The position numbers and the translations under genes were made by a program. Positions 5,226-6,512 of a stretch of DNA of 64,000 bases are shown one piece after another. The notes under the pieces were generated by a model. It had not been told where the DNA came from, searched no databases, and worked only from the letters and a program-made list of their open reading frames with translations. Source of the stretch: Nitrosopumilus sp. (GTDB lineage Archaea; Thermoproteota; Nitrososphaeria; Nitrososphaerales; Nitrosopumilaceae); NCBI GenBank assembly GCA_965197525.1, contig OZ240211.1, forward strand, positions 672,001 to 736,000, given 5' to 3'. Within the stretch, counting starts at the first letter, position 1, and each line of letters begins with the position of its first letter.

Positions 5226-6512
5226 GGTTCTGTGAAGTTATCGGGAGTTAACCCCTAAACTTGACTTTGACATATCGACTATTCGGATTACCAATGGTGT
5301 GCTGGGTTCCGTCATCGCCGGCTCAAAAGTGCCAGACTGCGCTTCACATATGTCATCTCTACTGCCCCTAAACCTAGGGGGCAGCTTGCGTGATATGTTC
5401 ATGGCAGCGATGATGTCTCTGTCCATAAACAAACCGCAATTATTACACGACAATTTACGATGTTGTTGCATGTCCTCTTGGAGTCTCTTTCCGCATTGCG
5501 GACACTGCGTGCTCGTGTTTCTTGGGTCTACTGTCTCGACGGGAGGCAGCCCGACCCATTGGGCCTTGTATTCTATTTGGCGTTGTAACTCGTAGAATTG
5601 CCACCCGTTCAATCTACGTCTGTACTTGTTACCTTGGCTGTTTCCTTTTCGGTACAATTTTCTTATTCCTTTCAGATTTTCCATGACGATTGCAGTCTTG
5701 TTTTTGACTGCGTTGTCTACTATATCCTTTGAGATTCTGTGGATGTACTGCTTTGCTCTGTTAGTCAGTCTTTTCTGTTTTTCCTTGTAGAACTGATTTT
5801 TCTTCCTGCGATCATTTCTGTGGAAGCCTGCCCTGGCGTGTATTGTGTTCTCCTTTATGGATAACAGTTTGTTTGTCTTGTAGACTGTCACCTCTTCCTC
5901 GTTCCCACACGTCACATTTCTTAGGTTTCTGTCTATTCCCACTTTCTTGGTGCACTCTATCTCTTGTACTTTTTTTGAAACACAAAGACTGATGTTGAGA
6001 GCAGTCAATGAAAACGAGCGCACCGTCAAGGCGGGATCAGATAGGATTTTTTGGGTGTGCTGGTTTAGTAAAATGTTGATTGGGTTATGTTTCTTGTATG
6101 GGATTGTTAGTAGGACACCGTTGTGTTTTATGCCGTAACAGTTTGTCATAAAGGGATTTTTGACTATTGGGTCTCTTATTCTGACACCTCGTTTGATTGA
6201 TTGTTTTCTGTTTGATAATATGCCTGCAGCTCTTGATATTGCACATATCTTGTATGTTGATAAAATGTCATAGTTACGTAATTCATGATAACATAACATG
6301 GACAACCTCTTCATATTGTGAGTGTCTTCTTTCAACCCTATCTTGATGCAATGATTGACCATCTTTGTGAATGTACTCATCATATCCATTAGATCAGAGT
6401 TTGGCGTATATTTCTGTGATATTGACTTTATCGCTTTCAACGAATATCTTACGGTTTAGAGGTTTATACATTTTAGGGATTGACAGATAACCCCCGATAA
6501 CTTCACAGAATC
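5226..6512 (-). mobile_element. tnpB-only element E1 with IS6-type TIRs and 8-bp TSD AGATCTGA
   Basis: TSD at 5218-5225 and 6513-6520; ends GGTTCTGTGAAGTTATCGGG / CCCGATAACTTCACAGAATC. Confidence 0.9.
5238..6440 (-). CDS. tnpB: TnpB RNA-guided endonuclease
   Basis: RuvC-I GIDRN, RuvC-II VMENL, zinc finger CPQCG...CNNCG, RuvC-III DRDIIAAMNI; all catalytic residues present. Confidence 0.95.
   Translation of the reverse strand: MKAIKSISQKYTPNSDLMDMMSTFTKMVNHCIKIGLKEDTHNMKRLSMLCYHELRNYDILSTYKICAISRAAGILSNRKQSIKRGVRIRDPIVKNPFMTNCYGIKHNGVLLTIPYKKHNPINILLNQHTQKILSDPALTVRSFSLTALNISLCVSKKVQEIECTKKVGIDRNLRNVTCGNEEEVTVYKTNKLLSIKENTIHARAGFHRNDRRKKNQFYKEKQKRLTNRAKQYIHRISKDIVDNAVKNKTAIVMENLKGIRKLYRKGNSQGNKYRRRLNGWQFYELQRQIEYKAQWVGLPPVETVDPRNTSTQCPQCGKRLQEDMQQHRKLSCNNCGLFMDRDIIAAMNISRKLPPRFRGSRDDICEAQSGTFEPAMTEPSTPLVIRIVDMSKSSLGVNSR

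Follow-up and report, generated by a model that had tools for sequence, protein, structure and literature searches.

How a gene for the RNA-guided nuclease TnpB is mobilized when it lies between terminal inverted repeats (TIRs) of the IS6 type is the question raised by the locus analyzed here, a 64,000-nt stretch of a Nitrosopumilus sp. genome (contig OZ240211.1, positions 672,001 to 736,000; hereafter the window) that carries three such units, E1, E2 and E3. In its accepted role, TnpB restores IS200/IS605 or IS607 elements that have been excised without leaving a scar. IS200/IS605 elements are moved by a Y1 transposase, have no inverted ends, make no target duplication and have the transposon-adjacent motif (TAM) abutting their left end; IS607 elements use the serine recombinase TnpA and also have neither TIRs nor duplications. 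Based on the evidence described below, we consider it probable that E1, E2 and E3 belong to a large non-autonomous family with IS6-type ends, which carries only an OMEGA module (tnpB together with an omegaRNA overlapping its 3' end) as cargo, is moved in trans by resident transposases, and has TTR (R being A or G) as the TAM next to which TnpB would cut empty alleles.

The window is part of a single-contig genome of 2.21 Mb with a GC content of 39.6% and a completeness of 98.99%. E1, E2 and E3 each contain one open reading frame (ORF) of 399 to 408 aa and no other gene (Table 1). Their inverted ends of approximately 22 nt open with GGTTCTGT or a one-base variant, and on both sides of each unit stands an exact 8-bp direct repeat particular to it. 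Both coordinates and sequences agree with the original prediction, which had described the three as tnpB alone within TIRs and distinct exact 8-bp target-site duplications (TSDs). Across the genome, blastn and our own end-finding script identified 34 full-length tnpB elements, which fall into at least nine end subfamilies; every TnpB homologue of this genome is a member of this one family. All 34 have GGTTCTGT-type inverted ends, and the register of tnpB to both ends is constant in all of them. A TSD was found for 23 copies (20 with a perfect 8-bp duplication, 2 with 7 of 8 positions matching, and 1 perfect after a 1-nt shift of the left end), and the duplicated 8-mers differ from copy to copy. 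Because all 34 copies have such ends and 23 have a duplication, the pattern seen in E1, E2 and E3 is not due to chance.

Evidence that the whole unit moves came from an empty E1 site. Logan contigs from four public runs were aligned to window positions 4200-7600. In one of them, run X5, whose host organism and study both differ from those of the best-matching runs, an 8.7-kb contig covers positions 4395-5214 and resumes at 6510-7597, with an identity of about 93-94%. This contig omits 1295 nt, corresponding to the 1287-nt element plus one 8-mer, and has 11 ambiguous letters at the joint. The related strain it represents has an unoccupied E1 site with a single AGATCTGA; on the tnpB strand, this allele reads TTG, then TCAGATCT, then the flank. 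A single 8-mer had been expected in empty alleles, as opposed to a retained TIR shell, and the E1 site has one 8-mer and no shell, which favors the whole unit as what moved. The unit has the ends of resident IS6-like SWIM-DDE insertion sequences, duplicates 8 bp on insertion and moves end to end. Orthologous empty sites were also sought in genomes of the same genus and in a second genome with related elements, where the intergenic sites could not be aligned (the neighboring argF gene is only about 70% identical).

Neither a Y1 TnpA (PF01797) nor a serine recombinase (PF00239) was found anywhere in the genome, which extends an absence previously claimed for the window. By comparison, tblastn detected seven full or near-full IS6-like SWIM-DDE transposase genes. 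The protein encoded by the one in the window matches the Pfam model DDE_Tnp_IS240 with 53 bits (cut-off 27), has a SWIM domain in addition, and has transpos_IS6 as its best NCBIfam model by far, the next being IS1 with 54.5 bits. Two autonomous elements elsewhere in this genome (746475-748444, with its transposase gene at 746963-748075, and 1956395-1960520) have perfect 8-bp duplications, and their ends agree with those of E3 at every one of the first 18 nt. Moreover, the right end of an autonomous element from another genus (L065) is within 1-2 bases of 20 E1/E2-type ends. Movement of the tnpB units in trans by IS6-type transposases, which had been proposed initially, is well supported because the genome has no Y1 or serine enzyme, holds seven IS6-like genes and autonomous elements that match the E3 ends over 18 nt, and because the empty E1 site is precise.

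The insertion sites themselves carry a one-sided motif. All 34 elements were oriented by tnpB and their flanks were tabulated, with positions counted from the left end. Directly 5' of the left-end duplication, positions -11, -10 and -9 were T in 25, T in 31 and R in 32 of the 34 copies. The T-R core was seen in 31/34 copies, the background frequency being 0.145 (binomial, 4e-23), and at the mirror position, past the right-end duplication, in only 6/34 (Fisher, 7e-10). It is present in all 23 copies with an intact duplication, in 8/8 complete elements of a second genome, where they occupy different sites, and in 10 of 12 miniatures that keep only the 3' end of tnpB and hence the guide-RNA region. 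By comparison, for 12 IS6-like autonomous elements of other genomes, all with perfect duplications, T-R was found on 3 of the 24 sides, and on none of the four sides of two autonomous elements in the genome of the window. Distant TnpB clades have TT at -11/-10 in 12 of 16 cases, often with T as the third base. A weaker A-richness is seen at -16/-15, and position -8 is C in 12/34 copies. Since the motif is asymmetric, oriented with tnpB, absent from transposase-only elements and directly abuts the duplication, we read it as TAM-like; TTR would fit a TAM if the guide began with the duplicated 8-mer and were directed against the empty site. Nearly every copy would then lie beside TTR at the position where the nuclease would need it to cut an unoccupied site.

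A guide of this kind would require an RNA that passes through the right end of the element into the flank. Three lines of evidence define the putative omegaRNA scaffold of E1, i.e., covarying helices, constraint on synonymous sites from codon 300 on, and retention of the region in miniatures that have lost tnpB. In the tnpB 3' region, two helices show compensatory changes in 9/9 pairs, exceeding shuffled and slid controls. In a further, terminal stem, a conserved GUCAAGU-like segment pairs with the right-end TIR at its positions 7-13; the share of paired cells is 82%, as opposed to 23-40% in slid controls, and 5/7 pairs are compensatory. RNAalifold, applied to a wide alignment, returned only one 4-bp helix, and the remaining helices were specified by hand; an Rfam search gave no match to an omegaRNA family. 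Overall, these patterns point to a probable omegaRNA structure overlapping the 3' end of tnpB. For E1, the guide is predicted to begin, on the minus strand, at the base after ...CAGAACC, with the right-end duplication (5218-5225) as its first 8 nt. In an RNA run labeled sponge metatranscriptome (X6), contigs were found on E1, deepest over 5226-5453, one of which extends beyond the right end; they were not used as evidence for an omegaRNA, as contig depth cannot rank parts of the element and DNA carry-over is possible.

The protein itself appears to be maintained. The ORFs of E1, E2 and E3 match Pfam Cas12f1-like_TNB (E = 1e-19 to 1e-21) and NCBIfam guided_TnpB (121-126 bits, cut-off 100), their nearest solved structures are ISDra2 TnpB and Cas12f, and the RuvC triad (D170, E254, D342) and the CxxC..CxxC zinc ribbon are invariant and intact. 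An open frame of at least 380 aa is preserved in 32 of the 34 genome copies. Among these copies, the ratio of nonsynonymous to synonymous substitution rates (dN/dS) is 0.09 over codons 1-300, indicating strong purifying selection. From codon 300 to the end, dS falls 3.6-fold, from 0.91 to 0.25, and dN is unchanged, as expected for an overlapping functional RNA. The right terminus is intact in 34/34 copies, whereas the left terminus is mutated in 10/34 (p = 0.0009). As right ends and reading frames are kept and left ends decay, the nuclease-RNA module seems to outlive the capacity of the element to transpose.

These observations can be combined into a mechanism. Resident IS6-like transposases would move the tnpB units in trans. 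As the omegaRNA scaffold would cross the right-end TIR, the guide would consist of the 8-bp duplication and the flank beyond it, and since an unoccupied site consists of TTR, the 8-mer and the flank, TTR (with T-R as its core) would act as the TAM. The TnpB-omegaRNA complex of an inserted copy could then cut the empty allele and would spare the junctions of that copy, which match over no more than 8 nt. Repair of the cut by recombination, or loss of the cut chromosomes, would copy or protect the insertion, and insertions beside a correctly oriented TAM would persist. The TAM-adjacent enrichment could thus stem from homing into empty alleles, from protection against precise loss, or from targeting of integration; the two TAM-less autonomous copies in a TnpB-rich genome provide a weak argument against targeting. 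A more specific version, to which we give somewhat better than even chances, is that OMEGA has been refitted to a DDE transposon with variable TSDs, with the right TIR serving as the last omegaRNA stem, the guide starting from the 8-mer, TTR lying outside, and persistence depending almost wholly on the TAM. If true, homing or protection by TnpB, and not the rate of transposition, would govern the success of these elements, even though an IS6-type carrier is not expected to excise.

Several points weigh against the reading of E1 to E3 as a trans-mobilized, TAM-dependent family. Only the E1 site was recovered empty. The transposase in the window scores 120.6 bits with transpos_IS6, below the cut-off of 125. 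The TAM was derived from insertion-site statistics alone, and the autonomous controls are few (12 + 2), most of them being from other genomes and from other transposase subfamilies. As for the RNA, helix 2 and the terminal stem were selected by eye from the same sequences in which they were later counted, and an ungapped hairpin-run test did not separate right from left ends (6.6 vs 6.4, not significant). No duplication was found for eleven of the 34 copies; the full-length copies included no reciprocal partners of these eleven, and a search of all GGTTCTGT-like termini for partners returned three chance-level matches where about 0.8 were expected. In addition, the reading gives no account of why a homing nuclease should be strongly needed or how empty alleles would be met in a clonal archaeon. 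Transposition of the IS6 family is classically replicative, and the duplication-less copies are compatible with replicative, cointegrate-forming transposition. In the second genome (OZ245003.1), two copies of this duplication-less kind (L002 and L004) have exchanged their 8-mers reciprocally, which marks an inversion caused by recombination between two copies.

Among alternative explanations for the motif, a target preference of the transposase or transpososome acting on these elements, unrelated to TnpB, would be in line with the tendency of DDE transposases to favor AT-rich or bent DNA and with the A-richness that accompanies TTR, and the small number of autonomous controls, mostly from other genomes, leaves some room for it. 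However, the ends are identical over 20-22 nt in many copies and yet the motif is one-sided and oriented with tnpB (31/34 vs 6/34), it is found on 3/24 sides of autonomous elements that have ends of this kind, or 0/4 in this genome, and the miniatures retain it in the orientation of their guide-RNA remnant; we therefore regard such a preference as unlikely. Slightly less likely still is that TAM-bound TnpB recruits or orients the IS6-like transposase, so that integration beside TTR is targeted independently of the guide, as in CRISPR-associated transposon (CAST)-like systems, and the motif does not arise through selection after insertion. A motif in 23/23 copies with intact duplications would be easier to obtain by targeting than by selection, and both the fixed spacing between end and motif and the strict orientation are in its favor; yet the motif is missing from all four sides of the two autonomous elements that share this TnpB-rich genome, suggesting that a guide RNA in cis is needed, no interaction between TnpB and a transposase is known, and the copies, which in blastn comparisons are all at least about 3% diverged from one another, have had time enough for selection. 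In its bolder form, in which TnpB bound to the TAM steers the transposase, this idea would make the family a primitive, guide-free relative of CASTs.

We consider it quite improbable that the motif only reflects a location next to BRE/TATA promoter elements of archaea. In favor of this, the flank upstream is rich in A/T and has A at -16/-15, but the 8-mer following TTR is not TATA-like (C at -8 in 12/34 copies), the information is concentrated in the three bases abutting the duplication, and autonomous elements do not have the motif in common with the tnpB units. The least credible alternative concerns the unit itself, namely that an IS200/IS605-type tnpB moved by itself into resident IS6-derived miniatures, the inverted ends being a mere shell. 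Miniatures with these ends are indeed present in the genome, but all except one of them hold remnants of the tnpB 3' region and thus arose from the tnpB element, not the other way round. For E1, the shell-less empty site contradicts this scenario directly; moreover, the genome has no Y1 or serine transposase, the register of tnpB is constant in 34/34 copies across at least nine end subfamilies and in distant genomes too, and a stop codon and a covarying RNA stem lie inside the right-end repeat.

Comparison with known systems places the family among DDE-borne TnpBs. Altae-Tran et al. 2023 (PNAS, PMC10691335) described six DDE-associated TnpB branches (DDE-1 to DDE-6) with inverted terminal repeats, along with solo TnpBs that have the same ends and for which trans-mobilization was proposed. 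According to the main text of that paper, these branches have in common with the family described here that tnpB lies inside the TIRs with its 3' end less than 250 bp from the transposon end, and that the ends of solo copies recur in copies that bear a transposase. As DDE families, that text and a 2026 review name IS630, ISL2 and IS1031; neither IS6-type elements nor ammonia-oxidizing archaea appear there, and a TAM upstream of a variable duplication, as seen here, is not part of the description given there. This family may overlap with one of DDE-1 to DDE-6, the distinction drawn here being one from the main-text description. The original prediction had also stated that no description of such elements was known to it, and this stands in part: DDE-borne and solo TnpBs had been published (PMC10691335), while an IS6-type carrier is not among the families named in its text. 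A literature search found no description linking TnpB with IS6-type ends, IS240, Nitrosopumilus or Thaumarchaeota. What is new here is therefore an IS6-type carrier for the known DDE-borne TnpB, together with a statistically strong TAM geometry.

With regard to the carrier, a review of the IS6 family, including IS26, IS257 and IS240 (Varani et al. 2021, PMC7986276), lists an 8-bp duplication, short inverted repeats starting with GG and an IS240-type DDE domain as its features, reports an N-terminal zinc-finger extension in some clades, and counts two miniature elements and a single passenger gene in the entire family, with no mention of TnpB. The elements studied here share the 8-bp duplication and the GG-start TIRs, their putative transposase has an IS240-type DDE domain, and they have ends in common with autonomous elements of the same genome. 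Unlike the IS6 members reviewed, the transposase has 383 aa with a SWIM domain and falls 4 bits under the NCBIfam IS6 cut-off, and the autonomous copies are 2-5 kb long and carry cargo.

With regard to the cargo, the units resemble the tnpB-only elements of the IS1341 group in that tnpB is the sole gene, an omegaRNA (putative here) overlaps its 3' end, and the guide would be taken from the right flank and the TAM from the left flank (both predicted here). Protein-less derivatives that retain the RNA region resemble palindrome-associated transposable elements (PATEs) and stand-alone omegaRNAs. Unlike in IS200/IS605 elements, the TAM-like motif is set off from the end by the 8-bp duplication. 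Membership of IS200/IS605 (IS1341 group) was rejected, given the TIRs, the 8-bp duplications and the absence of PF01797 from the genome, as was membership of IS607, given the absence of PF00239 and the presence of TIRs and duplications. Like Fanzor, the family combines an OMEGA nuclease with a DDE transposon that has inverted ends and target duplications. For Fanzor, the 2026 review describes the 5' duplication as part of the TAM and the 3' duplication as part of the RNA scaffold. In the family described here, by contrast, the duplication is arbitrary and does not include the conserved motif, and the guide is predicted to begin with the 3' copy; a Fanzor-type solution was rejected, as the 8-mers differ in every copy and the conserved bases lie outside them. 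The family may thus have adapted the homing logic of TnpB to a DDE transposon with variable target duplications.

The 2026 review considers DDE association to be rare in prokaryotes, as cut-and-paste excision already leaves a break, and traces this rarity to the part that TnpB plays after scarless excision. Despite this expected rarity, the OMEGA module thrives on IS6-type ends, with 34 intact-looking copies in 2.2 Mb, and the insertion sites bear a statistical footprint of what would be the recognition motif of the nuclease. This offers a testable prediction of TAM and guide for an uncharacterized archaeal TnpB clade, as well as a natural setting in which to ask what TnpB contributes to a transposon whose insertion duplicates the target and which may never be excised.

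The family extends beyond the genome of the window. A metagenome-assembled genome of Nitrosopumilus sp. (OZ245003.1, loci L001-L012) has the same element layout; its tnpB elements are 90-93% identical to those of the window genome at the nucleotide level, while the neighboring argF is only about 71% identical, which suggests that the elements have spread horizontally between species, and recently. One tnpB copy of OZ245003.1 (L012:234-1500) is split by two unrelated insertions, an opposite-strand transposase gene and a palindromic miniature element of about 100 bp with TAGACCTTATGCGTAATCGA ends. This copy was tried as an internal empty site and rejected, as the interrupting insertion sequences are not IS6-type. 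In other ammonia-oxidizer genomes, TnpBs 28-45% identical to that of E1 also have GGTTCTGT ends and 8-bp duplications, and among 201 sampled genomes of the order, a SWIM-DDE transposase was found in 88 and TnpB relatives in 35. The distant TnpBs with the same ends, together with the spread of the transposase, indicate that the association is old and widespread in ammonia-oxidizing archaea. Public runs containing the window come mainly from one host organism; since the sole RNA run with a share of it is labeled sponge metatranscriptome, the genome is probably that of a sponge-associated Nitrosopumilus, and the family accounts for part of the transposon load in such genomes.

Table 1. Features of the tnpB units, IS6-like elements and miniatures (window coordinates unless marked as genome)
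Feature	Position	Strand	Details
E1 tnpB-only element	5226-6512	minus	1287 bp
E1 TIRs	right end 5226-5247; left end 6491-6512		right GGTTCTGTGAAGTTATCGGG, left GATTCTGTGAAGTTATCGGG
E1 tnpB ORF	5238-6440	minus	400 aa; stop codon within right-end TIR
E1 TSD	right-end copy 5218-5225; left-end copy 6513-6520		AGATCTGA, exact 8 bp
E1 TAM-like TTG	6521-6523	minus	abuts left-end duplication on its 5' side; plus strand caa
E1 putative omegaRNA scaffold	5226-5425	minus	overlaps tnpB 3' end, crosses right-end TIR
E2 tnpB-only element	14452-15737	plus	1286 bp; ends GGCTCTGT... and GGTTCTGT...
E2 tnpB ORF	14524-15750	plus	reads through right-end TIR
E2 TSD	left 14444-14451; right 15738-15745	plus	CCAACATG
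E2 TAM-like TTG	14441-14443	plus	followed by left-end duplication 14444-14451
E3 tnpB-only element	52290-53621	minus	1332 bp; TIRs 22/22 perfect, GGTTCTGTGTAATCTTCGGGTG
E3 tnpB ORF	52348-53547	minus	
E3 TSD	right 52282-52289; left 53622-53629		TTTTTGGA
E3 TAM-like ATG	53630-53632	minus	adjoins left-end duplication 53622-53629
tnpB 3'/omegaRNA remnant	2778-2828 (genome 674778-674828)	minus	51 nt; blastn
IS6-like transposase ORF	27969-29120	minus	383 aa; SWIM, Zn-ribbon, IS240-type DDE
Autonomous IS6-like element	27962-31151	minus	3190 bp; 60-nt inverted repeats, 93% complementary; no intact duplication
Cargo: intron-containing tRNA gene	29161-29261	minus	Rfam match of 41 bits; not called by ARAGORN
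Cargo: 56-aa ORF	29354-29524		
Cargo: DNA methyltransferase gene	29639-30640		adenine- or N4-type
IS6-like transposase gene fragment	55176-55412 (genome 727176-727412)	minus	tblastn; aa 289-367, 53% identity
Miniature elements	genome 143852-144348, 803351-803738, 870887-871264, 1385894-1386101, others		mostly perfect duplications and TTR

At least 12 miniatures were identified in the genome. Those with lengths of 208-497 bp have retained both ends but, of the tnpB region, no more than the last 90-320 nt, and they resemble stand-alone guide-RNA elements.

The autonomous element in the window was found to be larger than originally implied; its intact transposase ORF with SWIM and DDE_Tnp_IS240 domains was recovered as described, and it is accompanied by passenger genes (Table 1). 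The ends of this element match a further tnpB subfamily at 20/24 positions. A diverged second right end (31041-31092, 77% identical) abuts the 60-nt right arm (31092-31151), placing tandem ends 59 nt apart. The flanks at 27834-27959 and 31206-31262 match contiguous parts of paralogous repeat-protein gene segments located downstream (33592-33769 and 35086-35263), suggesting that the element inserted into, and thereby split, one member of a repeated gene family. Approximately 54 nt past its right end are unaccounted for, with no clean duplication there. Further along, at 31723-32028, lies a tandem array of about nine copies of a 34-nt unit, several of them identical. Finally, in 4 of the 12 autonomous elements with perfect duplications from other genomes (L065, L068, L075 and L080), the 8-mer abuts the terminus of another GGTTCT-type element in the arrangement ...AGAACC, 8 bp, GGTTCT..., and these transposases may favor insertion right at the ends of related elements.

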